A stretch of DNA of 64,000 nt, from contig CAVSGO010000007.1 in NCBI GenBank assembly GCA_963727525.1, positions 1,472,001 through 1,536,000 of the forward strand. Direction: 5' to 3'. A program made the translations under genes and the position numbers. Under the pieces are notes generated by a model that was not told where the DNA came from, did no database searches, and worked only from the letters and a program-made list of their open reading frames with translations. This document shows, one piece after another, positions 6,897 to 33,109 of the stretch (its first letter is position 1; every line of letters starts with the position of its first letter). This DNA is from an uncultured bacterium (GTDB taxonomy: Bacteria > Krumholzibacteriota > Krumholzibacteriia > LZORAL124-64-63).

Positions 6897-6924
6897 ATTC
6901 ACACCTCCCGGTTTTCCGCGACGA

Positions 6925-9812: not shown

Positions 9813-10327
9813 CAGGTCTCGTCTCGCTCGTCCTGACCGGTGATCGTGAACGTCCCCAGCTCGAGATCGACCGCCGTCCTCAGGTAGAGATGCCAGGGCA
9901 CCGGCTCGGCCCACAGCATGCCCTCGATATCGAACGTCAGCGCCATCGGCATCCCGGCGGTGTCGTCCCGCGTGAGTCTCACCTGAACCGTATCCCGCAA
10001 GATCCGCGGCTCGAACCGCCAGATCGCCTCACGCAGCCGTATTTCCATCTCCCGCGCTTCCACCCGCGATGGCTGTATCCCGGCGAGATGGGGAATGCCA
10101 TAGTTGAGTGTCGAGGCCGCCACCTCAGGGTAGCGCTCCAGATCCTCCACCGCGTCGAGATTACCCGTGTTGAGCAGCCAGGTCAGATCCCGCAACACGC
10201 ACTGGCGCAGTTCCTGCATCGTCAGGACCTGCCGGTCCGCCGACTCCCGTCGCTGCGTCGGCTCGTCGTCCGTGAGGCGATCGAGGAGGGACGGCTGCAG
10301 TCGATCCTGCGGCTGCAGCCTAGGCAT
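9812..10327 (-). CDS. tssE: T6SS baseplate subunit TssE (gp25-like)
   Basis: LQPSLLDRLTDDEP, RDLTWLLNT, LNYGIP, IWRFEPRI. Confidence 0.95.
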   Translation of the reverse strand: MPRLQPQDRLQPSLLDRLTDDEPTQRRESADRQVLTMQELRQCVLRDLTWLLNTGNLDAVEDLERYPEVAASTLNYGIPHLAGIQPSRVEAREMEIRLREAIWRFEPRILRDTVQVRLTRDDTAGMPMALTFDIEGMLWAEPVPWHLYLRTAVDLELGTFTITGQDERDET

Positions 10328-11153: not shown

Positions 11154-11319
11154 GAGTCATTCCTTCAGTATGCGGAGGCGAGCAGCCCGAAAGCGCTGGC
11201 GTCGCCAGGAACGGCGACTACGCGGCTGCGGCGCCGGCACGGCCAGCCGCAGAGAGCGCGGCGAAGAGAGGATCACCTCTCCTCGCGCGCCTCCACGACA
11301 ATGTTGCCCGACGGCGCGC

Positions 11320-11802
11320 CTAGAGCTCCACGTTGCCGGGAATGTTCCACTTGAATTCCTTCGCCGCCGCGCCCGTGCCATCGGGGTTCTGCGGTGTGTA
11401 GGCGAAATCGAACTCCCCGAAGTTGAGCGTCACGTTCTCCGTCAAGCGATCCTCGCCGCCGCTGCCGCCCGTCGACACCGACGCCACGATGATCTTCCGC
11501 ATCTTCAAGATGATGTACTCGAGCGGCGTGCCGCCCGCCTTGCGCACCGTCAGGGTGCCTTCCTCGATGTGGGTACCCTTGTGGCAATGCTTGAGGAGGA
11601 TGTGCGACGACGAATCCACGTACTTCGTCACCGAGAGGTCCTGTACGGCGACCTTGCCAGCCCCGCCACCGGAACCGAGATGCATCGTACCCGACTGCGA
11701 CGCGCCCCACGACCAGGCGAGCACGTCGATATCTCCGGCATGAACCTCGTCGCTCGACTCACCATCGATGGCTTTCAGATTGAGAAACATGTCAACTGCC
11801 AT
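11320..11802 (-). CDS. hcp: T6SS tube protein Hcp (TssD)
   Basis: MAVDMFLNLKAIDGES..H...IDVLAWSWGASQ, TKYVDSSS, ENVTLNF. Confidence 0.97.
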   Translation of the reverse strand: MAVDMFLNLKAIDGESSDEVHAGDIDVLAWSWGASQSGTMHLGSGGGAGKVAVQDLSVTKYVDSSSHILLKHCHKGTHIEEGTLTVRKAGGTPLEYIILKMRKIIVASVSTGGSGGEDRLTENVTLNFGEFDFAYTPQNPDGTGAAAKEFKWNIPGNVEL

Positions 11803-11902
11803 GACTCGACTCCTTGCTTCTATCACCTAATGACAATCACCTGTCTACTGGCCTCGCTACGCTGTATGAGACTCAACCGGCCGCCTGCAGCCACCGCCAC
11901 CA

Positions 11903-13396: not shown

Positions 13397-13401
13397 CTCG
13401 A

Positions 13402-13953
13402 TCACTCCTCGCCTGAAGGTTGCTGGGCTCCGTCGCCCGCCTCGGTCGAGCCTTGCGCCGCCGGATTCGGCGTCGACGCCAGCGCCTGCAGCAGACTCGG
13501 ATCCTTGAGCATCCGCTCGATCAGAGGATAGGTGCCACTCTTCCCATCCATGTAGGTCAGCAGGTTGGACAGTTGCTGGCGAGCATCGAGCAGCTCCTTC
13601 AATGCACCCACCCGCCGGGCCACCGCCGCCGGCGAGAAGTCCTCCATGTTCTCGAAGGTGAGATCGATGCTGAGATTGCCCTCGCCCGTGAGCGTATTCG
13701 GCACCGTGAATGCCACCCGCGGCTTCATCGCCTTCAACCGGTCGTCGAAGTTGTCCACGTCGATGGCGAGGAACTTGCGGCCCGCGACGTCGCCCGGTGG
13801 CTCCTTGGAGCTGCCCGAAAGGTCTGCCATGACGCCCATGACGAAGGGCAACTGGACCCTCTTCTCGGCTCCATAGGTCTCGACGTCATATTCGATCTGC
13901 ACCCGGGGGGCACGATTCCTCCCGATAAATTTCTGACTGCTAGGTTTCGCCAC
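13402..13953 (-). CDS. tssB: T6SS sheath small subunit TssB (VipA)
   Basis: SSQKFIGRNRAPRVQIEYDVE, LPFVMGVMADLSG, FENMEDFSP. Confidence 0.97.
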   Translation of the reverse strand: MAKPSSQKFIGRNRAPRVQIEYDVETYGAEKRVQLPFVMGVMADLSGSSKEPPGDVAGRKFLAIDVDNFDDRLKAMKPRVAFTVPNTLTGEGNLSIDLTFENMEDFSPAAVARRVGALKELLDARQQLSNLLTYMDGKSGTYPLIERMLKDPSLLQALASTPNPAAQGSTEAGDGAQQPSGEE

Positions 13954-14026
13954 GGGGCACCTCCTCCGACTACGGCAATGAAAGACGGCACACTCGAATT
14001 GTCACCGCGGCCATTCGCGCGGCCAG

Positions 14027-15037
14027 CTACTCGGATTCGCGACCGATGATCTTCTCTACCTCCTGAACGCCTGCCGGTGCGAGATCTCGGACGATGTCGA
14101 CGAACCCCTTCGAGACGAGCTTCTTGGCCCGGCGCAGGAGCAAAGGCACCGGGCTCGACGGCTCGTGCTTCTGGAAATAGTCGCAGATCTGATCCAGAAG
14201 CCGGATCGCGTCTTCCCGGGATCGGATCTCGCCAGGCGCCGCCGGCACCATGGCCTGTTCGACATCAGTCGTCACCGGACCACCTCCGTGACGCGCCACC
14301 TGGTTCGCCAGCAACTCGCTCAGGTCCTTCAACATGCCCTGCAAGGGTGCGAAGCTCACGGCCTGCGTGGGCCCTACCTTCTCCATGAGGGTCGTCTCGA
14401 TCGATTCGACGAGGCCCGGCGCCTGGCTGCTCGCTTCGGCATTCGCACGGAGCTCGTCGACATCGCCGGCCAGAAACGCCGCCTCGATATGCGAGACCTC
14501 GGGCACCGTTGCTCCATCCTGCGCCGTCGCCGGCATCTTGCCGGTCGCGACGAGGTAGTCCTGGAACGTGTAGTTGCCGATGCCCCGAGCGCTCGCCACC
14601 TGCAAACCCCGCACCGACCGTAGAGTTTCCAGGCTGCACAGATTCAGAAGGGTGTTCACGCGTAGGGTGGGATCGTTGCCGTCGCTCGGATCGAGCGCAG
14701 GATGACAGGTCTCCCAGTAGCGTTCGATCAACCCATGGACCACCGTAAGGCCGTCGCGCAAACCCGGCAGGCCGTGCGTGGCGATCAGCGCGCGCGTGAG
14801 AAAGACGGCCACGCGCAGGTCCCGAGTCCTGGTGAAGAGTTCGCGCGCGTTGCGCTCCACTGCGCGCCAGTCGGCCTCCTCGCCCGGCAGGACCGAGTCG
14901 CCGACCTTCTGTTCTTCCTTGCCGCGGGCCAGCTGCTCCATCGCGACGAAAGCATCGTCATACTCGAGATCGTCACCGCAAGGCGCCTCGGCAGACAAAG
15001 GTTGCAACATCTCGTCGGTATTGAGCACCTGAGCCAT
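14027..15037 (-). CDS. tssA: T6SS protein TssA (ImpA, short TssA1 type)
   Basis: ImpA_N motif PCGDDLEYD...ADW...RTRDLRV; C-terminal SREDA...YFQKHEPSSPVPLLLRRA. Confidence 0.95.
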   Translation of the reverse strand: MAQVLNTDEMLQPLSAEAPCGDDLEYDDAFVAMEQLARGKEEQKVGDSVLPGEEADWRAVERNARELFTRTRDLRVAVFLTRALIATHGLPGLRDGLTVVHGLIERYWETCHPALDPSDGNDPTLRVNTLLNLCSLETLRSVRGLQVASARGIGNYTFQDYLVATGKMPATAQDGATVPEVSHIEAAFLAGDVDELRANAEASSQAPGLVESIETTLMEKVGPTQAVSFAPLQGMLKDLSELLANQVARHGGGPVTTDVEQAMVPAAPGEIRSREDAIRLLDQICDYFQKHEPSSPVPLLLRRAKKLVSKGFVDIVRDLAPAGVQEVEKIIGRESE

Positions 15038-15152
15038 ATTGTGTCACGTCGTTTGAGCGAGCCCGTTCGTTCCGCCGACCGGAGTGACGGCGGCAACTTC
15101 TTGAAAAGCGCGGACTTAAACAACCGGCGCCGACTCCGCGCCCTCCCGCGCC

Positions 15153-15181
15153 AGACTAGTGGAGGGGCGTTGTCCTGTCAA
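15153..15181 (-). promoter_or_regulatory. Candidate sigma70 promoter for tssA-tssB-tssC-hcp...vgrG
   Basis: Minus strand reads TTGACA (15181-15176), a 17-nt spacer, then TAGTCT (15158-15153), about 115 nt upstream of tssA. Confidence 0.65.
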
Positions 15182-15225
15182 TATCGAATAACCTGTAAAC
15201 GCCGTGGCGCGAGGGACATGAGAAC

Positions 15226-16653
15226 TCAGTCGCCTCGCAGAGATACGCCGGTGCCTGCAAGAGTTTGCAAGGTCGCAACCGAGATTGCGGCGCGATCCTT
15301 GTGGCTACATAGCGGGATCAATCCCCGCGAGACGAGTCCCTGGATCGCGCGCTCACTCAACCACACCTCGGCACAAGGCTGCATGATCCTGGTCCCGTCG
15401 TGGTCATGCACGGAGAGCGGAAAGCCGTCGAGCGTGAGTTGATCGCGCGGTGTCGATACAGTCGCCATTGCGTGGCGCCGCACGAGCATGAGCGCACAGA
15501 CGTGCGCCGGATTGCCCCACAGGAATGACGTGTGCACCGGAGCCCCGGGCATCTCGTCGAAGGGAAAGGCATCGATCGGATCGGTGCCCGGACCATACGG
15601 CAACCGAAGCAATGCCCGGGGCCAGGCGAGGCCCACGCCGGCCGCTTCGGGGGCCCGGCGCAGCGATTCCCAGTCGGTCTGGAGCGTGACTTCCGGAGCG
15701 GCCCACAGCGCGTCATCCAGCCGCGCCTCGCGCGGCGAGAAACCCACCACCGCAGGATCGGCGGCCGCCAGGAAGACGCTGCCGACCCGCGCTGCGATGG
15801 CCCCGAGGCCCCGCAGGAGGAATACGTCCTCGTCGCTGTCGCCGAAAGCGTAATCGCCGATCACGAGCGACCAGCCGCGCGCACCATGCACCTCGACCTC
15901 GGGCGCGATGATGCGACGATACAGGTTGGCCTCGTCCAGGTGCCCCGAAACGGCGCGCAGATCGTCGCACAGTTCGGCCTTCGTCACGTCGCAGATCACC
16001 ACCTCGTGCTCGTCCCCGTCGTCCAGGTTCTGCACGAGCCAGGCCAGGCTCCGCCAGGTGGCCTCCACCGCCTGGAACGCGGGGTGATGCAGGATCGCGC
16101 GCATGCGGTCGGCGATCGCGCGGTCGCAGGCGGCGTCGCTGGCGTGCTGTCCGGGATCCGGAGCGGGCGCGACATGCGGTGCCACGATCTCGCGGATCAT
16201 GCGGTCCACGGGCGTGGACGGCGGGTCGTCGCCGGATTCGCGGGGCTCCCCCAGGAGCCGTGCCAGGGTCTCGGCATCGCCCTCGCCGGACACGGACCGA
16301 TCGCGCCCATCGTCGCGGCATCGTTGCAAGGCCGTGAAATCGCCCACCTGGTCGCGGAGTGCGTCGGGGTGGAAATCGTCCATTGCCGCGATGGCGATCG
16401 TGGTCGCGGGTTCGGTGGGATCCGCGGGCTCCAGCCTGATGCGGGGCGCCAGGCGCGCCATCAGCTCGTCGATGCCCAGGACATCCACCGGATGGAGCAT
16501 CGGTACCGTCGGGGCGGCCGCGTTACTGCCCGTGCCACGCCCGCGAAAATCGCCGAGTACGAGGATGCGCCCCGGCGCCTCATCCCGCTGCCGACTCCGC
16601 GCAGCGGGTCCCGGGCGTCCGAACGTGAAGCGAAATTCCGAATCGTCCCTCAT
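15226..16653 (-). CDS. Second sheath-like protein: TssB-like N-terminus fused to a truncated TssC-like domain
   Basis: N-terminal RILVLGDFRG...IDELMARLAP...MDDFHPDAL parallels TssB; ILHHPAFQAVEATWRSL, RALLRLPYG, FLWGNPA and PCAEVWL parallel TssC. Confidence 0.8.
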   Translation of the reverse strand: MRDDSEFRFTFGRPGPAARSRQRDEAPGRILVLGDFRGRGTGSNAAAPTVPMLHPVDVLGIDELMARLAPRIRLEPADPTEPATTIAIAAMDDFHPDALRDQVGDFTALQRCRDDGRDRSVSGEGDAETLARLLGEPRESGDDPPSTPVDRMIREIVAPHVAPAPDPGQHASDAACDRAIADRMRAILHHPAFQAVEATWRSLAWLVQNLDDGDEHEVVICDVTKAELCDDLRAVSGHLDEANLYRRIIAPEVEVHGARGWSLVIGDYAFGDSDEDVFLLRGLGAIAARVGSVFLAAADPAVVGFSPREARLDDALWAAPEVTLQTDWESLRRAPEAAGVGLAWPRALLRLPYGPGTDPIDAFPFDEMPGAPVHTSFLWGNPAHVCALMLVRRHAMATVSTPRDQLTLDGFPLSVHDHDGTRIMQPCAEVWLSERAIQGLVSRGLIPLCSHKDRAAISVATLQTLAGTGVSLRGD

Positions 16654-16664
16654 CGCGTGACCTC

Positions 16665-17651
16665 TCAGGCTCCACTGGCCCAGCGCAGGTAGTCCTCGAG
16701 ACTCGCCGACGGCGACTCGAGCACCGCACGCAGATCGGGCGCCATCCTCGCCTCCGGGGGCTGCGTGCCGTAGGGGCGATCGAGATAGCTTATCGATTCC
16801 AGGCTGGTTTGCGCATCGAGCAGGCTGACCCAGTGACTGCCCAGCGGACGCGACTGGAAGTAGAAATAGTGGCCGCGGTCCGCATCCGCCTCCGACGTCA
16901 TGCGCACACTCCAGATCCGGGACAGCGCGCGGCCAAGGTATCGCTCCGTGAGGTCGAGCCAGAAACAGCTCTCCCGCCCCCCGGCGTCCCCGATCGCGTG
17001 CGCGAGGGGATAGCGAAGTCCGCCCCGGAACGCGCGCGCGTCGCCACGCTTGGCCGGCGCGAGCGTCTCGACGAGAGCCTGGAACACCGTGAACGCCCTG
17101 CTGGCGTCCGCCGCGCCGGCGTCACCGCACAAGGCTGCGGGATCGACCCGCGTGGCCACGTATTGCCGGTAACCGCCAAGGAGCACAGCGTCATCCGGTC
17201 GCGGCAGCGCCGCCAGCGACTGCATGCGCCCACGCAGATCGGCCCGCGTTTCGCTTCCCACGATCGCCGCGAGCGAGCCTGCGATCTGCTCCTGCAGCGC
17301 ACTCATCCGCAGCATGTTCAGCACCGCCGATGACGCCCCGCCGCGCACGCTGGCAAACACCGCGAACGGGTGCTTGCGACCCGCGGCATCGCCGCTCGGA
17401 CAGATCACGCCCGCGAGCCGGCGGTCGTCGCCGACCTCCCACAGAAACCGCAACCACGGGAAGTCCATCAGCCGCCGATCGCAATCCTGGCCGAATCGCG
17501 CCTTCGCCAGCCCGATCCCTTCGCCGATCCACAGGTCGAACTGGGATTCGCCGAACCCCGGGGCATCCTCGACGATGAACTCGCGGCTCAGCGGCAGCTT
17601 GCCGAAGCAACCGAAACCCATGATCTCGTAAGCTGCGCCACCGGGACTCAT
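16665..17651 (-). CDS. tagF: T6SS-associated TagF family protein
   Basis: GCFGKLPLSREFI and GVICPSGDAAGRKHPF match the TagF_N motifs GKLP..GDF and S.D..GR.FP; ATGA overlap with the tssM stop. Confidence 0.85.
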   Translation of the reverse strand: MSPGGAAYEIMGFGCFGKLPLSREFIVEDAPGFGESQFDLWIGEGIGLAKARFGQDCDRRLMDFPWLRFLWEVGDDRRLAGVICPSGDAAGRKHPFAVFASVRGGASSAVLNMLRMSALQEQIAGSLAAIVGSETRADLRGRMQSLAALPRPDDAVLLGGYRQYVATRVDPAALCGDAGAADASRAFTVFQALVETLAPAKRGDARAFRGGLRYPLAHAIGDAGGRESCFWLDLTERYLGRALSRIWSVRMTSEADADRGHYFYFQSRPLGSHWVSLLDAQTSLESISYLDRPYGTQPPEARMAPDLRAVLESPSASLEDYLRWASGA

Positions 17652-20600
17652 TGGGATACCGACTCCTGGATCGAGAACGAGCGAAATATCGAGCCGCGCA
17701 GGAAGAACGGATCCACGTCCTCGAACGGCGTGAGCGTGAACTCGACCGCAACGCCCTGATCGGGGAACGTCCACGTCACCACCCGGACAGCGTTCTGCGC
17801 GTCGATCTGGTCGGCAGCATCGAAGAGCTTGCAGATGTCCCAGACCGACTCCTTGAACTGGAGACTCGCCACCGTTTCCGGCGGGTTCGAGCGCTGTAGC
17901 GCCAGCCCGCACGTCAGATCCGGATCGTCGCTGCGCCAGGTGTAGCTCTTCTCCCTCTTATTCATGTAGTCGACCAGCTCGCCGCCGTTGATCGTCAGCA
18001 CGACCTTGTCGATCTTCCGCCAATTCGCGTCGCCCCGCGGGGTGCCATCGGAGCGAACCCCGCGCGCCATGAGGGTGAAGCGCGCCTGGAATCCGCTGTC
18101 CGTCATCCGGAGGTCTTTCTGGAGGTCCTGCGCCTTCTCGATGACGGCGTTGGCCCGGCGCCCCGGATTGCCGCCGTTGCCGACCATGAAGCTGTGGAAC
18201 GCGGCCATCTTGCCGTTCGGCCCGAGGAGCCCGATCACGTCCATGGGATCGGCGTTCTTGCCGCCGATACGGAAGGGGTAATACGGTGCAAGCTGCTCCG
18301 CGTAGAGACGATACGTGTCGGTCCAGTGCTGTTGCAGGTCGCGTTGCCGGGCGCTGCGCGAGTGCGCCACGATCACACGACTCGCGGTATCCAGCGGCGT
18401 CTCCAGCAACCCGGAGATGGCGGCGGCGAGCTGGCCCTTGCGATCGGCCTCGAAGTTCTCCACCCAATTCTTGGCGTCGAGCACGGCGTTCTGTTTCGGC
18501 GTGGTGCCACCTTCCTTGCAGGCGTAAACCTCGCTCTGCACGTCGGCGAGCAGGTCGCCGTATTTGCCGGCCGGCGTCTGCTCACTGCCCTCGGGGCTCG
18601 CGAACAGCGTCGTCAGCGGTTCGAGCTGCTTGGCGATGCTCTTGATCGCCTCCGGTTGCGTCGCGCCCTTGTCCAGGCCGCCCGCCAGCGGATCGGCCGC
18701 CGACGCCGCCTGGCGCAGCATACGGAAGAGCGGCGACTCGGAGGTCGACTTCAGCTTGCGCAGGTCCTGATCGTAGTCGTCGCAGCTCTCATAGCTCCTC
18801 GCCAGACGCACGGAATCGAGGAAGCGCGTCCACTCCTGGACATAGCCCACCATGTACAGGCTCAGCAGATCGTCTGCGGACGGAACGCGGCCCGTGGGCT
18901 CCCCGCCAGCGAGCGTGATGATCGCGTTGTCCGCGTCGACGGTGTCCTTGACGTTGCGGATCTCCCGCCCCACGTACTCTCGCCACCCGTCGCGCGAGTA
19001 GCCGAAGCGCACGTCCTCGCTCGCCGCGAGGATGTCCTGGCCCGGAACCAGCGCCGACAGCGTGAGGTCGTCCTGCTCCTGGCTCGCCCCGACGATGATG
19101 CCCCGGAAGAACTCCTGCGTCTCGTGGGTGTCGCTGAGTCGACGCGCACCGCGCCCGAGTTCGCGCGACCGTTCGAGACCCGGCAACGGCCGCTCGAGTG
19201 CGAGAAATTCGGCCGCCATGGCCTTCAGCTCCCGATCGATCGCCTTGCTACTCTCCTGACCATTCAGGATGTAGGGTCGCAGGCCGGCGGCCAGGTCGGC
19301 GGCGTCCCAGCCGATCGCGTCGTGCTTCGCGGGCATCAGGAGCATCAGCTCGGTCCGCAGCGCGCTACGCACCTTGCTGGCCGGCAGCCCTCCGGACCCA
19401 TCGAGATCGCTGGCGATCGCGCGCTCCGCCGGTCCGAGGATGCGTTCCGTGATGGCCCGGTAGTAGACGTCCTGTGCCGCGCGATGGACCGCATCCGTCA
19501 CGATCAGGGGGAACGACCGCCATGACCCCTGGATCCGCTCACGCAGGGTATCCAGACGCGTGAGTTCCTCCACGGGTGTCGCCTGCGAGGAGGGCTCCAT
19601 CAACTCCTCGGCGATGTGCTGCGTGCGGTCCATCCGCGTCCGTAGCCGCACGTAGGAGGTGCCGATCCACACGCACCCGAGGAGGCCGAGCGCGAGGAAC
19701 CCCGCCGACACGAACAGAGCGAGCCGCGACCGTTTGCGCGCTGACACGCTGGTCAGCCGCACGAGGTCGCGATCGGTCTTCAGAACCTTGGCAAACAGGT
19801 CGCGGACGAAGTACGCATCGTCCTTCGGCTCCTGCTCGGCGACCGCAGACGCATCCGCCCGGGCGCCCAGCATCTCGTGGATCTTGCGTACGACCAGATC
19901 GAACGGCTTGCCCTCCTGCATGCCGCTCGAGAAGTAGGTGCCCCGGAAGATCGGCACGTCGCGACGATAGGGATTGGCCTCGAACAGGGTCTCGACGAAA
20001 AGGACCAGCCGATCCTTGAGATTGCCGTACTCCTCGGGAAACATGAAGACCCGGCCCCAGTTCTCGCTTCGCGAGACCGCGGACATGCGGCCCGGGCGCA
20101 TGGCCCGCAGATTCGCGATCAGCAGGTCGAACTCGCCGGCAAACCGTACCGCCGCATCCTGATCACCCTCCGGCTTCGGCGTGTAGACCGCGCCCCAGAC
20201 CTGGTAGCGATCGACCGGCGACAGGCGCTCGAAGTATTCCGCGAATCCCGCAACCAGGTCGCACTTGGTGAAGAGCACGTAGACCGGGAAATTCCAGCCG
20301 AGACGGTCGAGGATCTCGTCCATGCGCTGACGCAGGTCGCGCGCGCTGTTGATGAGAGCCATCTCGTCCTTCTCGTACAGATCCTCCATGCTGTAGGCGA
20401 GAATGAGCCCGTCGATCGGCCCGTGCTTACGATATGTCTTCAGCATGTCGAGGAACGCGAACCACTCGGCCTCGGTCTCGCTACGATCCACACCCTCGGC
20501 GTATCGGCCGGCGGTATCGAGCAGGATGGCGTCGGAGGAGAACCACCAGTCGCAGTTGCGCGTCCCACCGGAGCCCCGCATCAGCTTCGCCGTCGTCATG

Positions 20601-21037
20601 CCGGGAAAGTTGAGGCCGGAGTTCTTGATCGCCGTGGTCTTGCCGATGGCCGGCGGACCGATGATCAGGTACCACGGCAGGGTATAGAGCGCCTTCTTGC
20701 CCTGCGGGCCCTGCTTCAGGAGCGCCAGCGCCTCCGCGAGATTGCGCTGCAGAGCTTCCACGTTGGATCGGTTCGCCGGCGCGGCCTGCTCGACGCCCGC
20801 CTGGGCCTGGCCCATGATCCCGTCCTCGATCGCCTTGGCGCGCCGCCGTTCCACCATCCACTTCACACCGAGGAACACGGCCCAGGCCACGATCACGACG
20901 ACGACGGCCAGCACGATGGCCCAGCGCGGGATCACGCGCAGGAAGGGGAACCGCGCCCGCGCCATCATGAGGGCGATGACGATGACCAGGAGCACTCCGA
21001 AGGGAGCGAGGGTCTTCTTGAGGATCGCGAAGAACAT
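17648..21037 (-). CDS. tssM: T6SS membrane complex protein TssM (IcmF)
   Basis: Two N-terminal TMs, LYTLPWYLIIGPPAIGKTT, CDWWFSSDAILLDTAGRY, PVYVLFTKCDLVAGF, FRGTYFSSG, third TM. Confidence 0.95.
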   Translation of the reverse strand: MFFAILKKTLAPFGVLLVIVIALMMARARFPFLRVIPRWAIVLAVVVVIVAWAVFLGVKWMVERRRAKAIEDGIMGQAQAGVEQAAPANRSNVEALQRNLAEALALLKQGPQGKKALYTLPWYLIIGPPAIGKTTAIKNSGLNFPGMTTAKLMRGSGGTRNCDWWFSSDAILLDTAGRYAEGVDRSETEAEWFAFLDMLKTYRKHGPIDGLILAYSMEDLYEKDEMALINSARDLRQRMDEILDRLGWNFPVYVLFTKCDLVAGFAEYFERLSPVDRYQVWGAVYTPKPEGDQDAAVRFAGEFDLLIANLRAMRPGRMSAVSRSENWGRVFMFPEEYGNLKDRLVLFVETLFEANPYRRDVPIFRGTYFSSGMQEGKPFDLVVRKIHEMLGARADASAVAEQEPKDDAYFVRDLFAKVLKTDRDLVRLTSVSARKRSRLALFVSAGFLALGLLGCVWIGTSYVRLRTRMDRTQHIAEELMEPSSQATPVEELTRLDTLRERIQGSWRSFPLIVTDAVHRAAQDVYYRAITERILGPAERAIASDLDGSGGLPASKVRSALRTELMLLMPAKHDAIGWDAADLAAGLRPYILNGQESSKAIDRELKAMAAEFLALERPLPGLERSRELGRGARRLSDTHETQEFFRGIIVGASQEQDDLTLSALVPGQDILAASEDVRFGYSRDGWREYVGREIRNVKDTVDADNAIITLAGGEPTGRVPSADDLLSLYMVGYVQEWTRFLDSVRLARSYESCDDYDQDLRKLKSTSESPLFRMLRQAASAADPLAGGLDKGATQPEAIKSIAKQLEPLTTLFASPEGSEQTPAGKYGDLLADVQSEVYACKEGGTTPKQNAVLDAKNWVENFEADRKGQLAAAISGLLETPLDTASRVIVAHSRSARQRDLQQHWTDTYRLYAEQLAPYYPFRIGGKNADPMDVIGLLGPNGKMAAFHSFMVGNGGNPGRRANAVIEKAQDLQKDLRMTDSGFQARFTLMARGVRSDGTPRGDANWRKIDKVVLTINGGELVDYMNKREKSYTWRSDDPDLTCGLALQRSNPPETVASLQFKESVWDICKLFDAADQIDAQNAVRVVTWTFPDQGVAVEFTLTPFEDVDPFFLRGSIFRSFSIQESVSQ

Positions 21038-21038
21038 C

Positions 21039-21719
21039 CTAATCCCCCCCCAGCGCCCGTACGATGTGCGCCGCGTGCCGGTCCAGCAGGTTCCAGCTCA
21101 GGAGCCAGAGCACGATCGGCACGAGTACGGAAACGAGCACCACCGCGGGCCAGGGAAACCGTTTGATCGGCTGCAGGCGTCCGCCCTCGGGCACTGGCAG
21201 CCCGTCCGGCGCAAGGACGGACATCCGGGTGCCGATCTCGTGGGACAGCTCGTTGACGAGGTCGGCGTGCTCGCGTTCGGATTCGATGAGGCGCCCCCGG
21301 AAACCGGAGATCAGGCAGTAGTAGAACACCTCCACGACCTCGAGACGAGGCGGCACCGCCCGGCGCACTTCCGCGAGCTTGTCGAAGAAGCCGTCGCCGA
21401 CGAACTCGTCGTTGCAGTAGTGCTTGGCCAGAGCATCCGCCTGCCATTCGCCGCGACCGTTCCACGTCGCCGTGAGCAACGTCTCGTCGATGAAGGCCGC
21501 CATGGCGTAGCTTGCGTCGCGGATGTCGTCATCAGCCACACCCTCGTCGCGAGCCTGGCTGCGAAACTCGTGGAACATCCGATCGACGGATCGCCGCAGA
21601 TCGGGGAAGCCGTCGAGATCGTGGCTGCGCTTGAGGACGATCGCCAGGGAGAGGAGCGAGGCCGCACTCCGGGCTAGCCGGCCCTGCCGCTGTACGTCGC
21701 GCTGTGGAGTCGAACTCAT
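21039..21719 (-). CDS. tssL: T6SS TssL (DotU), no OmpA domain
   Basis: ASYAMAAFIDE, GDGFFDKL, EVFYYCLISGFRG, C-terminal TM. Confidence 0.93.
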   Translation of the reverse strand: MSSTPQRDVQRQGRLARSAASLLSLAIVLKRSHDLDGFPDLRRSVDRMFHEFRSQARDEGVADDDIRDASYAMAAFIDETLLTATWNGRGEWQADALAKHYCNDEFVGDGFFDKLAEVRRAVPPRLEVVEVFYYCLISGFRGRLIESEREHADLVNELSHEIGTRMSVLAPDGLPVPEGGRLQPIKRFPWPAVVLVSVLVPIVLWLLSWNLLDRHAAHIVRALGGD

Positions 21720-23104
21720 GCGCCTCCCTCCAGCCCGAGCAGCTCGAACTGCGCTGCCAGGAGATTCCGCGGGATGTCCATCGCCAGCGCTCGGCCCGCC
21801 GCGATGGCTTCCCAGTCCTTCTGCGCCTCGGCCGTGCTGCCGCGGGTGTCGAGCTGATAGTACCACGTGTTCCGGCGGCGCGGGATCGCCGGCGGCGGCA
21901 CCGTCACCAGCTGCAGCGGCAGTCCGCGCAGATTCATGCTGAGCTTCTGCTCGATTCGATCTGGACTCGCCACGATGATGCGCTTCGCGCTCTCCAGGAC
22001 ATCGCGTTCCCCGATGCTCTCGCTAGCGATCGAGAGATAGAGCCCCGCCGTGGGTTGCAGGAGCGCGTCCTTCTCGATCTGCGCCTGGAATCGGCCCTCG
22101 CCCGTCGTCGTGAGCGGGATCACGACATAGCCGTGGCTCGCCCCGCTCTCCAGCAGCTCCACGATCATCCGCTGCAGTTCCGCGAAGACCGGCCCCGCAT
22201 CCTCGTGCACGTACGCGGGCACGTCGCGCGGATGCATGCGGCGCGCATTGAACGTCGCGAGCTGCCCCACGAGGCCGGCGAGCGTCCGGTAGAGCTGCTC
22301 CGGATGGGCGGCCGGCGTCTCCCGCAGATGCGCGAGATGCGGGATGGCGCCGTTGACCACGAGGAACCGCAGGAACTCCCGGAGATTGGCCGGCGTGATG
22401 TCGCGCCCATCGGCGCCACCCTCCGTGAAGCGCTCCGCCAGGCCGGAGGAGCGCACCACCAACCGCTCGAGCAGCGCCCGCGTCAGATGCACCAGATGCG
22501 CCGAGCCTTCGATCGCGAGCAGCGGCGGCACGTAGTCATCGACGAGCTGAAAGCCGCCGGCGGCGCTCTTCGCCACCCGAGCGATGCGCAGGCACTCGAA
22601 ATTGTCGCGCGACTCGACGCCCGTGAGCAGACGGAGGTTCAGCTCCGCGCGCTGGATCGTCCGCTCGTCGCGTCCGGTGTTCTCGTCCTCGATCGCGAAA
22701 GCCTTGGCGAGGTAGCGCACCTCGGCTCGATCCTCGGAGGCATCCTCGGCGAGCCGGCAGTTCGGCCAGCCGGTGCGCCGCAGGGGCAGGCCGAGATACA
22801 CGTCGAGAGAGTCCATCCGTAAATCGAAGGAATCCCGTATGTCGATGCTCGGCGGCGCCGGATCGATGTCTGGAAAGCACACCGAGGTCCCGCCGGGCAT
22901 CACGCCGCGGCACGAGAGCACGCGCAACGTACCCGAGGCCAGGCCCTCGGGATCGATCTCCAGCGAGCGCACGCCCCACGGATGGGGAGAACCCAGCGCC
23001 GCCCGCTCCGCCAGCTCGTATTGCTGGAAGAGCCCGGCCTGCTGGAAGTGATGGGGCGTGAGAAAGAGTCCCTCGCTCCAGAGAATCCGATGGAACCGAG
23101 CCAT
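21716..23104 (-). CDS. tssK: T6SS baseplate subunit TssK
   Basis: ILWSEGLFLTPHHFQQ, DYVPPLL, HPEQLY..L. Confidence 0.95.
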   Translation of the reverse strand: MARFHRILWSEGLFLTPHHFQQAGLFQQYELAERAALGSPHPWGVRSLEIDPEGLASGTLRVLSCRGVMPGGTSVCFPDIDPAPPSIDIRDSFDLRMDSLDVYLGLPLRRTGWPNCRLAEDASEDRAEVRYLAKAFAIEDENTGRDERTIQRAELNLRLLTGVESRDNFECLRIARVAKSAAGGFQLVDDYVPPLLAIEGSAHLVHLTRALLERLVVRSSGLAERFTEGGADGRDITPANLREFLRFLVVNGAIPHLAHLRETPAAHPEQLYRTLAGLVGQLATFNARRMHPRDVPAYVHEDAGPVFAELQRMIVELLESGASHGYVVIPLTTTGEGRFQAQIEKDALLQPTAGLYLSIASESIGERDVLESAKRIIVASPDRIEQKLSMNLRGLPLQLVTVPPPAIPRRRNTWYYQLDTRGSTAEAQKDWEAIAAGRALAMDIPRNLLAAQFELLGLEGGA

Positions 23105-23152
23105 GCCGAGGGCCTCCTGTCCGATGCCGACCGCGTACCGCCGAATCCGTGC

Positions 23153-23614
23153 TCAGTCCTGGGTCACCACGATGCAATCGTCGAGCACCCTCACGCCGAT
23201 CTTCAGCTTGGCGCCGTCCTCGACCGGAATCTTGGTGCGCGCGCAGGGTTTGGCGTCGGCAAAACCCGCGGCGATGACGATCCACCGGATCTGCGGGTCG
23301 TAGTTGCTCATGTCGATCATATGCGCCTGATCACCTGGATAGAGCGGGAACACTTCCTTGTGGACGATGCCCGGCTGCGAGACGCCGTTCGGGTCGGCGA
23401 GCTGGATGTTGTCGATGTTGTTGAGTGCGGATTCCTGGCTGAGGAAATAGGCACCGACCCAGGCCGGCTGGTTCAGATCCGCAGGTCGATCCAGGTTGAT
23501 GCGGATGTAACGGCCGCCACACCCGGCCAGCCCCAGCAGGCAGACGCCAAGCAGGCAGAGTCGAAGCCGACACGCGGCCGCACGACGCCCCTCATTCATA
23601 CTGACTCCCGGCAT
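23153..23614 (-). CDS. Lipoprotein, probable divergent TssJ
   Basis: Lipobox LAGC after a hydrophobic stretch; directly upstream of tssK; size and the DLN...V..Y.L...LYPG...WIVIAAGF pattern resemble TssJ. Confidence 0.65.
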   Translation of the reverse strand: MPGVSMNEGRRAAACRLRLCLLGVCLLGLAGCGGRYIRINLDRPADLNQPAWVGAYFLSQESALNNIDNIQLADPNGVSQPGIVHKEVFPLYPGDQAHMIDMSNYDPQIRWIVIAAGFADAKPCARTKIPVEDGAKLKIGVRVLDDCIVVTQD

Positions 23615-24498
23615 CAAGGCTCCTCCTCCATCTTGTCGCGGTAGGCACGCTCGAACCGACCACGGTAGTAATGGTCGATATTGCGATCGAACTGATTCCA
23701 GAACTCCTCGAAGCGTCGTTCCAGCTCCTTGACCATGGCAGGGTACTTCAGGATGCTCGTCTTCGCCGACTTCGGGTCGAGGTGCTCGAGGACTTCGCGG
23801 GTGCCGCCCTTCCACGACTGCTGCGCTCCGGCCATCAGCGCGCCGGGCAGGATCTGCAGCAACCGTAGCTGCCGCTGCACCGCGTCCATCTCCTGCCGGG
23901 AAAGCGCCTCGCCCGCCGCCAGACGGGGCAAGAGTGTCCCCAGGCTCCGCTGCGCATCGCTCGGCGAGCCCTTCCCGACGGTGTCCTGAACGGACCTCGC
24001 CGTCACCTCCTGGTTGAAGGCGAAGGCGAAGAGGAGCACCGCGACATCGACCAACATGCCCTGCGCGGCCGGCGACAGGTCCCTGGTCCGGGGCGCGCCA
24101 GCGCCATCGCGGGACGGCAACGGACCGGCGGCGGCGCCCGCGAGGCGTGCCATGTGGTCGTCGGCGAGGGCCCCCCGTTGCTGGAGCCGGTCGCGTTGCG
24201 CCGTGAGCTGCGCCACCTGGTCCTCGAGCGCGGCCAGGCGCTCCGTCATGTCCTGGTTCGAGCGATCCGTCTCGAAGACCCGGTCGGGGAACCGGTCGCG
24301 CAGCTTGCGCACCAGCTCGTGGATCTCGTCCCGGGTGAGACCCGCCGCATGCTCGTGGATGGCCAGGCGCAGCACAGCCTTGCGCTGGTCCTCGGTTGCG
24401 AACTCGCTGCTCCCCAGGACGGCACGCAGTTTCTGCGCCAGCGACCTGACGGTGAGACCGCGCTCGGCGGCCGTCCGCATTGCTGTCACCGTCTTCAT
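23614..24498 (-). CDS. Coiled-coil protein ending in a TagH/Fha C-terminal-like domain, lacking FHA
   Basis: C-terminal ALMAGAQQ...EVLEHLDP...RFEEFWNQF...RGRFERAYRDKM resembles the A.MAG...LL.RFDP...F..AYE.Q tail of T6SS Fha; translationally coupled to both neighbours. Confidence 0.65.
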   Translation of the reverse strand: MKTVTAMRTAAERGLTVRSLAQKLRAVLGSSEFATEDQRKAVLRLAIHEHAAGLTRDEIHELVRKLRDRFPDRVFETDRSNQDMTERLAALEDQVAQLTAQRDRLQQRGALADDHMARLAGAAAGPLPSRDGAGAPRTRDLSPAAQGMLVDVAVLLFAFAFNQEVTARSVQDTVGKGSPSDAQRSLGTLLPRLAAGEALSRQEMDAVQRQLRLLQILPGALMAGAQQSWKGGTREVLEHLDPKSAKTSILKYPAMVKELERRFEEFWNQFDRNIDHYYRGRFERAYRDKMEEEP

Positions 24499-26717
24499 CA
24501 CGGCTTGGCCTCCCGGGGTGGGAACACCATCGTCTGGTCGAGATTGTCGGGCATGGTCCGGGTCTGGCCCGACCGGGCGGCTTCCTCGAGGTCGGCGAGG
24601 AAGTCGTCGCACACCGCCTGCACGCTCGCATTTCTACCCGCCGACCCGATCAGCGAACCGCGCGCGCGCTCGGCGAGTTCCTCGAGTTCCTGCACCACCG
24701 TCTGCAACGGTTGCGCCGGGTCGGCCGGATCGAAGTCGTCCTGCGCGCCACAGATGCTCCAGCCCGCCACGTTCGACGCCATGCGCAGGGCGAGCAGGAG
24801 CGCATCATTCCAGAGGCTCGCCGGGATGGCGGCGTCGACGGCGTCGCGATCGATGGCCCGGTACAAGACCTCGCGCGCGCCGGACGCGATCCCGGCCGAC
24901 TGCAGGGCCGCCTGCAGCCGCGCATACTCCGCGCTCACCCCACCGCCGCCCGGGGTGGCCACCGCAACGGCGAGCTCGCCTGCCAGGCGCGTGTCCACCT
25001 GGCTCAGATCCTGACCGTCGTTCGCCAGGAGGACCCGCAGCATCACCAGGCCCAGGCTCATGACGTCGGCCGGCGCCGCGAAGACATGCACCAGGGTCAC
25101 CTCGACGTTGGTCGACGTCGCGAGGTCGGTCGACTTCAACGCGGCGCACGTATCCGCGGACAGGGCGCCCGCCGTGCCGGTGAACCGAAAGCCTCCGGCG
25201 ACCGACGCCGTCTTGCGGCCAGAAAACACGATGCGCTGGTTGGCCGCGGACCCGACCACGAGCACCACGCGCACGAGATCGCGATTTCCATGGTCGGCGG
25301 CGCGATAGAGATCCGGAGCCGTCAGCCGCGCGGTGAACTGCGCGCGCCACTTGCCGGACGTCTCCTTCACATCAAGGTTCTCGAGCGCGAGGCGCATCGA
25401 GAGATGCTCGATCTGCGGCCGCCCCATCGCGGCGGGCAGGTAGGCTTCGGGGCACGGATAGGGAAGCCCGGCGACACCTGGTTCGCCCTCGATGCGATCG
25501 ACATCCAGCTCGAGGGGCCGCGCCGTGGTGAGCAGGTCTGCGATCTCCACCGCCAGCCCCCAGCGCACCGGTACGATGGCCGGACCGGGCAAGAGCCGGG
25601 CGCGCAGACGATCGGGCGTGAGGGCCAGATGCGGGTCGCCCGTCGCCTCCAGCAAGTCCTGCGCGCCGCGCGCGAGATCGGTCATGGCCGCCAGCTTGAG
25701 GTAGAGCGCCTCCAGGGCCGATAGACCGGTGGCGTCGCCCTCGAAGTAGACCTGACGACCGGCCTCCCCGAACGCAGCCAGCGCCTCGCGCCGCAGCGGC
25801 ACGTCGCGCGCGGATTCTCGCGTGGCGTCGTTCAACCCGTCCGGATCGGCACCGCCGAGGAACGCCACCGCCTCGTGGAACCCGAGGGGCGCGGGCTCCA
25901 GGGGAATCCAGTGGAAATCGTAGTAGGCGAGCGGAAAGAGCAGATCCTCCGCCGGCACGCGATCGTCGACGTGACGGTTCGCGGGATAGCACGCCGCCCG
26001 ATGTTCGCACCGGAAGCACGGATGCCGCTCGGCCGCATCCTCGCGCGCCGCCGCTTCGGAACCCGCGATGACGGCACCGAGATCCCGGTACAGCTCCGAT
26101 CGCCGCCGCACCGAGATGCCGTCGGCGATTCGCTCGAACCGCCGCAGCGAGAACGTGTAGAACACGGGCGCGCGGCCCTTCCCCTGGGAGCACGTCGGAC
26201 AGGTCAGGAACCGCACGAGGCCGTTCTCGTACGACGGCAAGCCGCTGCGCCGCAGGAGATTCTCGTCGCGGCAGGTGTGCATGACACCGAGGCACGCCGG
26301 GCAGAGGGGCGTGATGTACGCGCCGGTCTTGCGGCACCACGCCAGCGGCGCATGGCTCGGCAAGTCGCCATCGCTCGCCGAGGCCGGCAAGGCCCGCCTC
26401 TCGAGCTGCGCGACGGAGCGCGATGCGGTGCGCTGGTAGCGGCGGAACCCCTCCCGCCAGATGCGCTCGATGGAGAGGTTTCCGATAGCCGGCGAGCCCG
26501 CGGTACGCGACCCCGGGTACTCGTTCGGCTCCATCAGGATCGTGACGTGCGGCACGAACACCCGACCGTCCACCTCCACCGACGCGAGATAGGCGCGCAG
26601 CGGATGAGCGTCGGCCAGCAGGCGGATGAAGGGATCCGTCGGCATGGACCCATCCGCGGCAGAATCGGCCCGGACGTGCAACCGGATGGGCGAGGGAAAA
26701 TCCTTGTCGGCAGGCAT
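24498..26717 (-). CDS. Cys-rich (Zn-ribbon) protein with degenerate kinase-like C-lobe motifs
   Basis: About 739 aa; WCRKT..LCPAC..TCRD, CPTC, HPCFRCEHRAAC; DPHLALTPDRL and PADVMSLGLVMLRVLL; first gene of the tss operon; alternative start at 26750. Confidence 0.7.
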   Translation of the reverse strand: MPADKDFPSPIRLHVRADSAADGSMPTDPFIRLLADAHPLRAYLASVEVDGRVFVPHVTILMEPNEYPGSRTAGSPAIGNLSIERIWREGFRRYQRTASRSVAQLERRALPASASDGDLPSHAPLAWCRKTGAYITPLCPACLGVMHTCRDENLLRRSGLPSYENGLVRFLTCPTCSQGKGRAPVFYTFSLRRFERIADGISVRRRSELYRDLGAVIAGSEAAAREDAAERHPCFRCEHRAACYPANRHVDDRVPAEDLLFPLAYYDFHWIPLEPAPLGFHEAVAFLGGADPDGLNDATRESARDVPLRREALAAFGEAGRQVYFEGDATGLSALEALYLKLAAMTDLARGAQDLLEATGDPHLALTPDRLRARLLPGPAIVPVRWGLAVEIADLLTTARPLELDVDRIEGEPGVAGLPYPCPEAYLPAAMGRPQIEHLSMRLALENLDVKETSGKWRAQFTARLTAPDLYRAADHGNRDLVRVVLVVGSAANQRIVFSGRKTASVAGGFRFTGTAGALSADTCAALKSTDLATSTNVEVTLVHVFAAPADVMSLGLVMLRVLLANDGQDLSQVDTRLAGELAVAVATPGGGGVSAEYARLQAALQSAGIASGAREVLYRAIDRDAVDAAIPASLWNDALLLALRMASNVAGWSICGAQDDFDPADPAQPLQTVVQELEELAERARGSLIGSAGRNASVQAVCDDFLADLEEAARSGQTRTMPDNLDQTMVFPPREAKP

Positions 26718-26985
26718 GGAGCTCCCGGAGATAACGGCACCAAGGCGCATGCGCGCGCAACCGGAGACGGATAGCGAGATTAGAACAAACGAAGACTGGA
26801 CCCGTCAAGGGGCCAGGCGGATCGATGACGGGCGACCCGAAACGGAGCGTCGCGAAGCCAAGCGCGCCATTTCCTGGGAGTTGCAACCGCTCCATCGTGG
26901 CGATACACTGGGGCGGGGTCGTGTCATGCTCGGGACATCGACGGCATGCACCGCGACGAACGGGTCCACATCAGGGGCGGGTACC

Positions 26986-27609
26986 ATGGACGGTGACGAT
27001 CGCTTCCCCACTCCGCCGTCTCCCCAACGAGACGATCCGGACTCGACCCACGTGAATGCGCCGGGACCGCTGGAACCCGTCGAGCCACCCCAGGCTGCGC
27101 CCGCGGTCCCGCCCGTGCTCGGCGTGGTCGTCATCTATTCCGAAACCCACGAATCGGCGGCCGAGAACGACACGCGGCTCGGCTGCGTGTATCCACTACG
27201 CGAGGGCGAGGTTCTCGCCGTGGGCCGCACTCCGGTCCCGAAGAACGTGACGCGAAGCGACGGCGACACCGTCGCTCCCACCCACCGCCATGTCTTCCCG
27301 CACGGGGAACCATTCCGGTGCGTCTCGCGGTTACACGTCACGATCGAGTTGCAGCCCGGCGGCAAGGCCATCCTGGCGGATCACTCGCGATACGGGATCT
27401 ACCTGGAGAACGCCGAGACCTGGCACCGCCTCCCCGCCACCGAGAAGACGGCCGTGCACACCATCACCGAGCCTGAACATGTGGTGCTCATGGATCTCGA
27501 GGGCAAACCGGCCCGGCCCGACCTCGCCGATCGCCGCAGCCACTACCGCCTCTCGATCCTGCACTTCGCCTGGCTCGGCGCCGGTGCGCGCCAGGAGGCG
27601 CATTCATGA
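26986..27609 (+). CDS. FHA-domain protein with Pro-rich N-terminus
   Basis: YPLREGEVLAVGR, VSRLHVTI and ILADHSRYGIYL correspond to the FHA GR, SxxH and D.S.NG motifs. Confidence 0.75.
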   Translation: MDGDDRFPTPPSPQRDDPDSTHVNAPGPLEPVEPPQAAPAVPPVLGVVVIYSETHESAAENDTRLGCVYPLREGEVLAVGRTPVPKNVTRSDGDTVAPTHRHVFPHGEPFRCVSRLHVTIELQPGGKAILADHSRYGIYLENAETWHRLPATEKTAVHTITEPEHVVLMDLEGKPARPDLADRRSHYRLSILHFAWLGAGARQEAHS

Positions 27610-28148
27610 GATGTTCCGCCTGCTATGCCGAGAATCCCCCGTGGGCCACGATCTGCACGGACTGTGGCAAAGCCGTACTGCGCCTCGAGTTCTGCGCGGG
27701 CGGCCACCTCCTGCCGCCCGGAGCCCAGGAATGCCCCGTCTGCCCGCACCTGTGGCCCGAGGTCACCGCATTCGACGGCGCACCTCTCCTGCGGGGGATC
27801 CTCCTGGTTGAGAAGGGGCGGCTGACGAACGCCGACGACCCGGCCGATTACCTGCCCTACGTCGAGATCCGCGATCGCGAGCAACCGCTCGTACTGACGC
27901 ACGCACCCAATGAGCAGGTCACGATCGCCAATGACGACGCCGCCGGAACCTGCCGCGTCCTGATGCGGCCGGAGGGCGTGCAGGTCTGCGGTGCCGGCTT
28001 CGCGCACGAGCACGCGGGCCCACGCGTCTACAAGGCGCTCGGGCCGGACGACACCTTCGTTCTCGGGACCACCACGTTCCGCCACATCGCGTTCGACCCG
28101 CCCGCCTGGTCGGTGAAACTGGCGGAGAGTCGGCACCCGGACGGCTGA
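27606..28148 (+). CDS. Double zinc-ribbon protein with degenerate FHA-like C-terminus
   Basis: CSAC..N.....CTDCG, C.GGH...CPVC; C-terminal LGPDDTFVLGTTTF resembles the last FHA strands; ATGA overlap with the upstream FHA gene. Confidence 0.65.
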   Translation: MRCSACYAENPPWATICTDCGKAVLRLEFCAGGHLLPPGAQECPVCPHLWPEVTAFDGAPLLRGILLVEKGRLTNADDPADYLPYVEIRDREQPLVLTHAPNEQVTIANDDAAGTCRVLMRPEGVQVCGAGFAHEHAGPRVYKALGPDDTFVLGTTTFRHIAFDPPAWSVKLAESRHPDG

Positions 28149-33101: not shown

Positions 33102-33109
33102 GCGGCACC

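Follow-up and report, generated by a model that had tools for sequence, protein, structure and literature searches.

A predicted pseudokinase with cysteine-rich and beta-barrel insertions heads a type VI secretion operon in an uncultured bacterium

What kind of protein is encoded at the head of a type VI secretion system (T6SS) operon when none of the usual names applies to it, and what might it do there? The question is raised by a 64,000-nt stretch of contig CAVSGO010000007.1 (assembly GCA_963727525.1, positions 1,472,001 to 1,536,000 of the forward strand) from an uncultured bacterium of the Krumholzibacteriota. This whole stretch is referred to as the window, and coordinates are those of the window unless another locus is named. 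A first-pass annotation, made from the letters of the DNA, had proposed that the gene codes for a Zn-ribbon pseudokinase-like protein acting as a dead scaffold or sensor in T6SS activation. The product of this gene, referred to as the target, is predicted to be a protein kinase that has lost catalysis and that probably serves the TagH/FHA module of one T6SS lineage.

24498..26717, minus strand: target, a predicted pseudokinase with Cys-rich and beta-barrel insertions, heading the T6SS operon (open reading frame, AlphaFold2 model, VIA-align and hhalign).

The open reading frame of the target spans 24498..26750 on the minus strand and counts 750 residues from its first ATG. A start at 26717 gives 739 residues and is preferred because the sequence GGGAG lies 5 nt upstream of it and because the public database form of the protein also has 739 residues (P0002, 100% identity). 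The G+C content at third codon positions (0.86) is similar to that of the neighbouring T6SS genes. The stop codon TGA (24498-24500) shares one base with the ATG of the following gene, geneA, in the sequence TGATG, and an overlap of 4 nt (ATGA, GTGA or TTGA) was found between the two genes in 4/4 close relatives examined (L001, L002, L003 and L005). The target is thus a real gene of 739 codons, the first of an 18-gene T6SS cluster; its place at the head of the operon and the stop/start overlap at 24498 had both been given by the first-pass annotation.

The fold of the protein was approached through a structural model and through sequence profiles. The AlphaFold2 model was built on an alignment of 21 of the 24 proteins recovered by a word-based search, the fragments P0012, P0013 and P0016 being excluded, and reached a mean predicted local distance difference test score (pLDDT) of 81.8 and a predicted template modelling score of 0.85. 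In a wide search of 48,161 representative chains with VIA-align, 254 chains matched the model at Z of at least 8. The best 50 of these 254 chains were all protein kinase or pseudokinase domains (Z 13.3-16.1), superposed with a root-mean-square deviation (rmsd) of 3.0-5.8 Å over 223-283 aligned residues between model residues 1 and about 685. The top match was the IRAK3 pseudokinase (6ruu_A; Z 16.1, rmsd 3.4 Å, 268 of 285 residues), and bacterial PknB, PknE and the kinase-homology domain of Rv3910 were found among the same 50 chains. Three parts of the kinase fold could be delimited in the target:

26334..26636, minus strand: N-lobe, residues 28-128, with a degenerate Gly-rich loop (residues 32-45), strand beta3, helix C (residues 80-96) and the invariant W87 (hhalign, DSSP).
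25524..25724, minus strand: helix E, the degenerate catalytic loop and the DFG equivalent A-D394-L-L-T-T398 (hhalign, PDB profile matches to twitchin and ULK3).
24570..25076, minus strand: C-lobe helices F to I, residues 548-716, with the subdomain-IX-like motif A-D551-V-M-S-L-G556 (family alignment, ULK3 profile match, DSSP).

Profile comparisons led to the same parts of the fold. A profile of 74 family sequences (A2) was compared by hhalign with a profile of seven Hanks kinases from the target's own genome (A3) and matched it with 93.2% probability (E 3e-7) over 49 columns covering helix E, the HRD loop and the DFG region. The N-lobe was matched over the Gly-rich loop and the VAIK strand when the family profile was aligned with one Hanks kinase (E 2.5e-4, 42.7%). 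A sequence profile search of the PDB returned 19 weak matches (E 0.016 to 1.2). Nine were kinases (ULK3, three entries for twitchin, one LAMMER and one LRR kinase, two Sky1/SRPK entries and PERK), whose alignments covered the catalytic loop or helix F; aldolases, Rpb9, a miniprotein and CutA made up the remaining ten. The subdomain-IX-like motif was aligned in profile with DLWSxG of ULK3. The gathering cut-off of the Pfam family PF00069 (Pkinase, 31.7 bits) was not reached by the target, and among the 31 relatives scanned three distant ones gave sub-threshold Pkinase matches, the best at 26.1 bits (E 6.8e-6). Pkinase clusters were also listed by a feature search of the ESM Atlas with scores of 0.92-0.95, taken as a lead only. 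From the model and the profiles together, the target is predicted to adopt a complete bilobal protein-kinase fold that includes the C-lobe called for by the first-pass reading.

The residues on which kinase activity would depend were mapped through the hhalign columns and through the 136 family members, out of 169 retrieved, that counted 600 residues or more and were aligned with MAFFT. The stretch PHLALTPDRL (residues 362-371, window 25605-25634) had been read as a catalytic loop without its Asp and Lys, and the profile alignment bore this out: in P-H363-L-A365-L-T367-P-D-R370-L the HRD Asp is replaced by A365, the loop Lys by T367 and the catalytic Asn by R370. The Lys of beta3 is lost as well, its position being occupied by L61, and the target reads VTIL where relatives read VALK or AIK. 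The pattern GxGxxG, reported missing, occurs nowhere in the target, and LLADAHPLRAYLA, the stretch aligned to the Gly-rich loop, contains no Gly. The DFG motif had also been declared absent, which holds literally only, since the aligned A-D394-L keeps the Asp. An APE-like C-P-E424 follows, then the barrel described below, then helix F. The stretch compared with subdomain IX, ADVMSLGLVMLRVL (residues 550-563, window 25029-25070), is present and conserved, with D551 in 131/136 members and G556 in 132/136.

Across the family, distant members read VALK, PHLDLKPENIM and IDLAS or IDLGS at these positions. The Lys, Asp, Asn and Asp (K, D, N and D) are kept together in just 10 of the 136 members, and the family is therefore regarded as kinase-derived and mostly non-catalytic. 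The corresponding pattern of the target, LARD, is found in 16 members and the KGND pattern of the FHA-fused forms in 18. The fixation of LARD in 16 members points to long-term selection without catalysis. Judged by these residues, the target's clade is among the most degenerate of the family and the target is predicted to be catalytically dead, having lost the beta3 Lys, the HRD Asp, the loop Lys and the Asn, in agreement with the dead kinase-like protein first proposed.

Two insertions interrupt the kinase fold:

25989..26336, minus strand: Cys-rich insertion, residues 128-243, with nine conserved Cys and two putative metal sites located in the N-lobe and after it (alignment conservation).
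25077..25436, minus strand: six-stranded beta-barrel insertion, residues 428-547, between C-P-E424 and helix F (separate fold, DSSP).

The several Cys clusters noticed at first reading amount to 13 Cys in the whole protein, nine of which (C128, C139, C142, C149, C173, C176, C234, C237 and C243) are invariant in 21/21 relatives. In the larger alignment, the full set of nine is found in 68/136 members. Where Cys are missing, C142, C173 and C176 go as a group, often joined by C139, and C128, C149, C234, C237 and C243 are retained; two distinct Cys sites are distinguished on this ground. Site A (C139/C142/C173/C176) is a putative metal site of zinc-ribbon type. Its two CxxC knuckles, C139xxC142 and C173xxC176, are conserved and, where absent, disappear jointly; no Pfam Zn-ribbon match was obtained for the target. 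Site B (C128/C149/C234/C237/C243) is a putative metal site that would staple beta4 to the segment after beta5. The Cys pattern fits two structural metal sites.

The beta-rich insertion described between the two motifs was also recovered, in the form of strands assigned by DSSP over residues 436-543, between PHLALTPDRL and ADVMSLGLVMLRVL. Modelled alone from an 11-sequence alignment, residues 428-547 gave six strands and one helix with a pLDDT of 89.6; D480 is invariant. Foldseek matched the barrel to FNR-type FAD-binding barrels and to the 1B domains of Upf1/Sen1 (best E 0.013), and VIA to a mixture of ribosomal uL3-like, efflux-adaptor, FNR and PilZ barrels (best Z 7.3). As these matches are generic, the insertion is described as a generic six-stranded barrel without specific assignment. 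A c-di-GMP-binding PilZ domain was considered but not supported: PilZ chains reached just Z 5.7-5.8 among many unrelated barrels, and RxxxR and D/NxSxxG, the motifs of PilZ domains, were not seen in the alignment.

How does such a protein relate to known components of the T6SS? An exhaustive profile search collected 1195 cluster representatives at 50% identity (E <= 1e-3), of which 994 had E <= 1e-10 and 483 E <= 1e-30. The Pfam scan of 31 chosen relatives placed an FHA domain after the kinase-like part in 12, nine of them also carrying T6SS_FHA_C, in pseudokinase-FHA-T6SS_FHA_C fusions of about 1100 residues. The remaining relatives had the weak Pkinase matches already mentioned (3), unrelated weak matches (2) or none (14). 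Neither FHA nor T6SS_FHA_C was found by Pfam in the target itself, which is flanked by two genes related to these modules:

23614..24498, minus strand: geneA, 294 residues, a TagH C-terminal-like module without FHA domain (profile alignment, gene position).
26986..27609, plus strand: up1, a small FHA-like protein divergent from the target, its start at 26986 presumed (sub-threshold Pfam FHA match, synteny).

GeneA has no Pfam match and stands in the usual place of TagH, ahead of TssJ-TssK. An alignment of geneA and four orthologues (A5) matched the last 330 residues of twelve FHA-fused forms (hhalign 77%, E 2e-5, 211 columns). It also matched the last 340 residues of four FHA-less long forms (P0085, P0093, P0096 and P0128, all with K/D/N/D; 76%, E 2.3e-5). 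The same module was aligned with one bona fide TagH, that of locus L019 (57%, E 1e-4), whereas controls gave 0.7% (reversed) and 0.3% (kinase); an earlier run with untrimmed open reading frames had given 88%. Pairwise comparison of geneA with the long relatives by BLASTP and phmmer returned nothing, and the profile-profile comparison alone matched. The TagH-C-like label first given to geneA is supported by these alignments, which suggest that the target and geneA equal one protein in other lineages. Four arrangements were seen in the family: fused pseudokinase-FHA-TagH-C, fused pseudokinase-TagH-C, adjacent and split. The family's domain is usually joined to TagH, the FHA scaffold of the T6SS, or encoded beside it. 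In L019 the homologue is followed by TagH (FHA and T6SS_FHA_C), TssJ and TssK, and in L020 it adjoins an FHA protein. The target's locus has the split form, with the pseudokinase, the coupled TagH-C-like geneA and a separate divergent FHA gene. At E <= 0.01 the genome (96.7% complete) has no FHA-like match other than this last gene, up1 (19 bits for a cut-off of 20.7), whose orthologues pass the Pfam FHA cut-off at 3/4 loci.

A complex of target residues 11-716 with geneA residues 8-294 was predicted with an ipSAE of 0.37 (runs 0.38, 0.37 and 0.33), the best of three controls scoring 0.00. Contacts agreed to at least 84% and the partner pLDDT was at least 71. The ipSAE mark was reached by 116/157 solved complexes and 2/215 mismatches, and scores of 0.60 or less included only 18 of those 157 along with both mismatches. 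The prediction was counted as mild support for binding between the two proteins because the fusions gave it a high prior.

The link with secretion was followed in the surroundings of the relatives, and T6SS genes were found to flank 28/31 of those examined overall. In the genome collection they were present at 8/8 loci, labelled Eisenbacteria, an uncultured Fibrobacteraceae metagenome-assembled genome, Planctomycetales/Planctomycetota or unclassified. Four of the eight share the order target-geneA-TssJ-TssK-TssL-TssM-TagF. Three show the target, a gap and then TssK-TssL, two of them continuing to TssM and TagF within the fetched flank. At the last locus the contig ends inside the gene and the T6SS genes lie on the opposite side. 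A metagenome scan with a narrower alignment (A4) gave four loci, T6SS-linked in 2/3 of those counted (L019 and L020), L021 being left out for its weak match of 95 residues. In the phylum of locus L007, a family member was found in 29/401 sampled genomes. Twenty stretches of up to 20 kb were retained there, excluding G208, one contig-end match and weaker or partial matches, and T6SS core genes were present in 18/20, namely TssK in 17 and ClpV plus VgrG in the remaining one. The homologues are thus located mostly inside T6SS loci (8/8, 2/3 and 18/20), as expected by the annotation that tied the gene to this machine; of the two outcomes that would have refuted that annotation, neither the lack of a kinase C-lobe nor a majority of homologues outside T6SS loci was observed.

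Two of the metagenomic loci carry further genes beside the homologue. At L019 (4053-8615), VgrG is followed by an Rhs-repeat protein (1384 residues) and a DUF7674 protein immediately upstream of the pseudokinase homologue, likely an effector and immunity pair ahead of the regulatory genes. At L018, a family member of 1141 residues is divergent from a canonical kinase of 1569 residues with a C-terminal FGE-sulfatase-like domain (624-5333, minus strand).

Around the target, a complete T6SS cluster was identified by Pfam downstream on the same strand, together with two other genes of interest:

1961..23650, minus strand: remainder of the T6SS cluster, 16 genes (Pfam).
1..1554, minus strand: canonical Hanks Ser/Thr kinase, candidate PpkA-like, directly after VgrG (Pfam Pkinase, E 2.1e-41).
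27606..28148, plus strand: up2, a double zinc-ribbon protein co-conserved with up1 (Pfam DZR and Zn_Ribbon_1, both sub-threshold; synteny).

The order after the target is geneA, TssJ-like, TssK, TssL/DotU, TssM, TagF, a 475-residue sheath-like paralogue, TssA, TssB, TssC, Hcp, ImpE/TagJ, TssE, TssF, TssG, ClpV and VgrG, the TssJ-like gene being named from a weak T6SS-SciN match. TssK of the target's genome (G000) scores 344 bits, below most of its phylum (up to 415), and resembles TssK of G115, the other pseudokinase carrier; this may mark a separately acquired T6SS lineage. The extra sheath-like gene (15226-16653, minus strand), between TagF and TssA, codes for a single protein with a VipB match (E 1.5e-50) and a weak VipA match, a TssB/TssC-like fusion paralogue that comes in addition to the regular TssB and TssC. 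Its relatives were detected by tblastn at L001 and several other loci. The genes up1 and up2 adjoin the target in 4/8 genome loci (L001, L003, L004 and L005), and the C-terminal 130 residues of up2 have no assignment.

The kinase that follows VgrG has 642 residues in the genome and is truncated at the window edge, its sequence continuing in L022:5626-7554. It shows HRDIKPTN, DFG and APE in alignment A3, and may be a PpkA-like input module of the T6SS. Its VAIK position reads SLRVV in the same alignment, so that the beta3 Lys may be shifted or replaced. A CsgG-like protein and then a TPR/CsgG-like protein are encoded after it. The genome holds about 22 full Hanks kinases (25 Pkinase matches in all). 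A scan for sigma-70 promoters and terminators in the divergent intergenic region 26650-27050 returned 0 sites, and a sigma-54-like pattern occurred 64 times in the window for a shuffle mean of 61.4, with none in 26650-27050. Elsewhere in the window, the G+C content falls to 0.55-0.59 at 32001-34000, 36001-38000 and 46001-48000 (background 0.63-0.73), and these stretches may be foreign or non-coding DNA.

The target is probably a cytoplasmic, non-catalytic scaffold or regulator of the TagH/FHA module in one T6SS lineage, a role suggested by the gene fusions and the gene order. The pseudokinase would act as one unit with the TagH/Fha module, split at the target's locus into three genes. As a platform for docking or allosteric control, the dead kinase domain would retain the TagH-C and FHA proteins or let them go, and would thereby gate the assembly of the TssJLM/TssK complex, with the membrane complex and the baseplate. 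[quoted passage not shown]

Several observations count against this scaffold role or against the steps leading to it. The target gave no Pfam, NCBIfam or PDB sequence match of any kind. When the whole model was compared with the PDB by Foldseek, no kinase came up and nothing passed E <= 0.001; the inserted barrel accounted for the top rows (best E 8.5e-3), which were Sen1/Upf1 helicases and barrels of FNR type. As Foldseek, Pfam and NCBIfam gave no kinase match, the fold assignment rests on VIA-align, hhalign and the colinearity of the motifs. The DFG Asp is kept as D394 and nearly invariant in the close clade, and E336 and K341 are nearly invariant too, so that some residual binding of a ligand or metal may persist. 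The FHA score of up1 (18.8 bits) falls below the Pfam cut-off of 20.7, and the complex prediction between the target and geneA passes only weakly. The link with secretion is not universal either: no T6SS gene was found on the 10.5-kb contig of L018, nor in the fetched flanks of L059 and L060. At L060 a fused pseudokinase-FHA form of 1080 residues (11422-15471, minus strand) is followed by an ECF-type (extracytoplasmic function) sigma factor in a 19-kb stretch without T6SS gene, and the module may have been recruited there to other pathways. Finally, the family was found in 3/208 genomes of the target's phylum and TssK in 21/208, so that the family is considered an accessory of one T6SS lineage and not a core component.

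Other activities could be proposed for the same protein. The Cys clusters, notably site B, might bind Zn or an Fe-S cluster and, by a conformational change of the pseudokinase, switch T6SS assembly upon oxidation or metal loss; the target would then be a sensor of metal or redox state. All nine Cys are invariant in the close clade and fall into two separately conserved groups, and most members keep five Cys in site B, where four would suffice for a simple tetrahedral Zn site. Site A, on the other hand, is dispensable in about 40/136 members, no redox partner or metal-homeostasis gene was seen by Pfam in the cluster, and CxxC pairs of this kind are mostly structural Zn sites. A sensor function is thus unlikely, although it is compatible with the scaffold role, to which it would add an input. 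It is far harder to credit the target with an atypical kinase activity, in which non-canonical residues would allow ATP to be bound and TagH-C, the FHA protein or TssL to be phosphorylated. Some kinases without the canonical Lys are active, D394 is nearly invariant in the clade, and the ten members that keep K, D, N and D may be real kinases. The target's clade, however, lost the beta3 Lys, the HRD Asp, the loop Lys and the Asn at once, its Gly-rich loop has no glycine and LARD is fixed in 16 members, which makes such an activity highly improbable.

A more specific version of the scaffold role would turn the pseudokinase into a phospho-acceptor bait: a canonical Hanks kinase would modify one of its Thr, e.g. 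T398, and the modified residue would recruit the small FHA protein. T398 lies just after the DFG equivalent and is nearly invariant in the clade, a canonical kinase is encoded at the end of the cluster and the genome's only FHA-like gene is the divergent neighbour of the target. The Rv3910 kinase-homology domain (3uqc_A, Z 14.1) is moreover among the structural matches; the mycobacterial MviN pseudokinase is reportedly phosphorylated by a real kinase and then bound by the FHA domain of FhaA. Against this version, no PP2C_2 phosphatase was found in the genome, other phosphatase families not having been searched, and the T7SSb precedent is described as phospho-independent. The bait version is accordingly rather doubtful, and the scaffold role in its general form is preferred.

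A broader reading would join several of these elements. The family would be a widespread and unrecognised T6SS module, a kinase-fold switch bound to TagH, either built into it or docked on it. Members of the K/D/N/D minority would phosphorylate themselves and bind their own FHA domain in cis, while in most lineages, including that of the target, the domain would be a dead allosteric switch. A cellular cue, be it metal, redox state or a small ligand, would be sensed by the Cys sites and the barrel, which would then license the assembly of the T6SS, and the module would take the place of the classical threonine-phosphorylation pathway of PpkA/PppA in these lineages. This reading is put forward tentatively, as a conjecture.

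The interest of the locus extends beyond a single operon. The target would be a bacterial pseudokinase scaffold in a new machine, with new insertions. No description of a T6SS pseudokinase or of a kinase-like N-terminal domain of TagH was found in searches of open-access literature, and curated families have no match for this large kinase-fold family with its 1195 clusters. What is understood of post-translational T6SS control comes mainly from a few Proteobacteria and their PpkA/PppA/Fha and TagF pathways. The present family appears to be physically tied to TagH in lineages labelled Planctomycetota or Eisenbacteria and in other uncultured ones, and to be mostly catalytically dead as judged from its residues. 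The occurrence of predicted-active and predicted-dead members with the same architecture offers a natural series for the transition from kinase to scaffold, and the split, adjacent and fused gene forms provide ready hypotheses on the parts in contact.

Among known systems, TagH/Fha1 occupies the same slot before TssJ-TssK, and the TagH proteins of the long relatives have the pseudokinase as their N-terminal part. The target differs in that the FHA domain and the TagH C-terminal domain are supplied by up1 and geneA instead. IRAK3 (6ruu_A, Z 16.1), the JH2 domain of JAK2 (5i4n_A, Z 13.4) and Rv3910/MviN (3uqc_A, Z 14.1) are kinase folds acting as non-catalytic regulators, as the target would. 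They share only 9-16% identity with it and have neither a Zn-type N-lobe insertion nor a barrel between APE and helix F. PpkA, an active membrane kinase with a periplasmic domain, resembles the target as a kinase-fold protein encoded in T6SS clusters and tied to Fha/TagH. In contrast to PpkA, the target has no catalytic residues and no Pfam domain beyond its kinase-like core, and a separate canonical kinase is present in its cluster. An active kinase domain phosphorylating Fha or TssL, the mark of PpkA, is therefore not predicted for the target, whose catalytic residues are absent. The functional tie between this T6SS-cluster kinase and Fha/TagH is described in the literature (PMC3953482).

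The target is best read as analogous to EssB/YukC, the pseudokinase of the T7SSb and its closest precedent. No sequence relation between the two was detectable by Pfam, and EssB/YukC was not among the best 50 of the 254 VIA-align chains. EssB/YukC, of the Gram-positive T7SSb, is a membrane protein that has an extracellular domain besides its transmembrane segment, whereas the target has Cys-rich and barrel insertions, belongs to a T6SS and would have TagH as its FHA partner. The pseudokinase domain of YukC co-purifies with the YukB FHA domains, with which it forms a stable complex, a binding argued by the authors to be phospho-independent (bioRxiv 10.1101/2020.05.09.085852). Both proteins would be dead kinase folds, dedicated components of a secretion machine and paired with FHA domains. 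The T6SS would thus be a second, independent secretion machine that pairs a pseudokinase with FHA domains, after the T7SSb with EssB/YukC and EssC, which suggests a recurring design principle.

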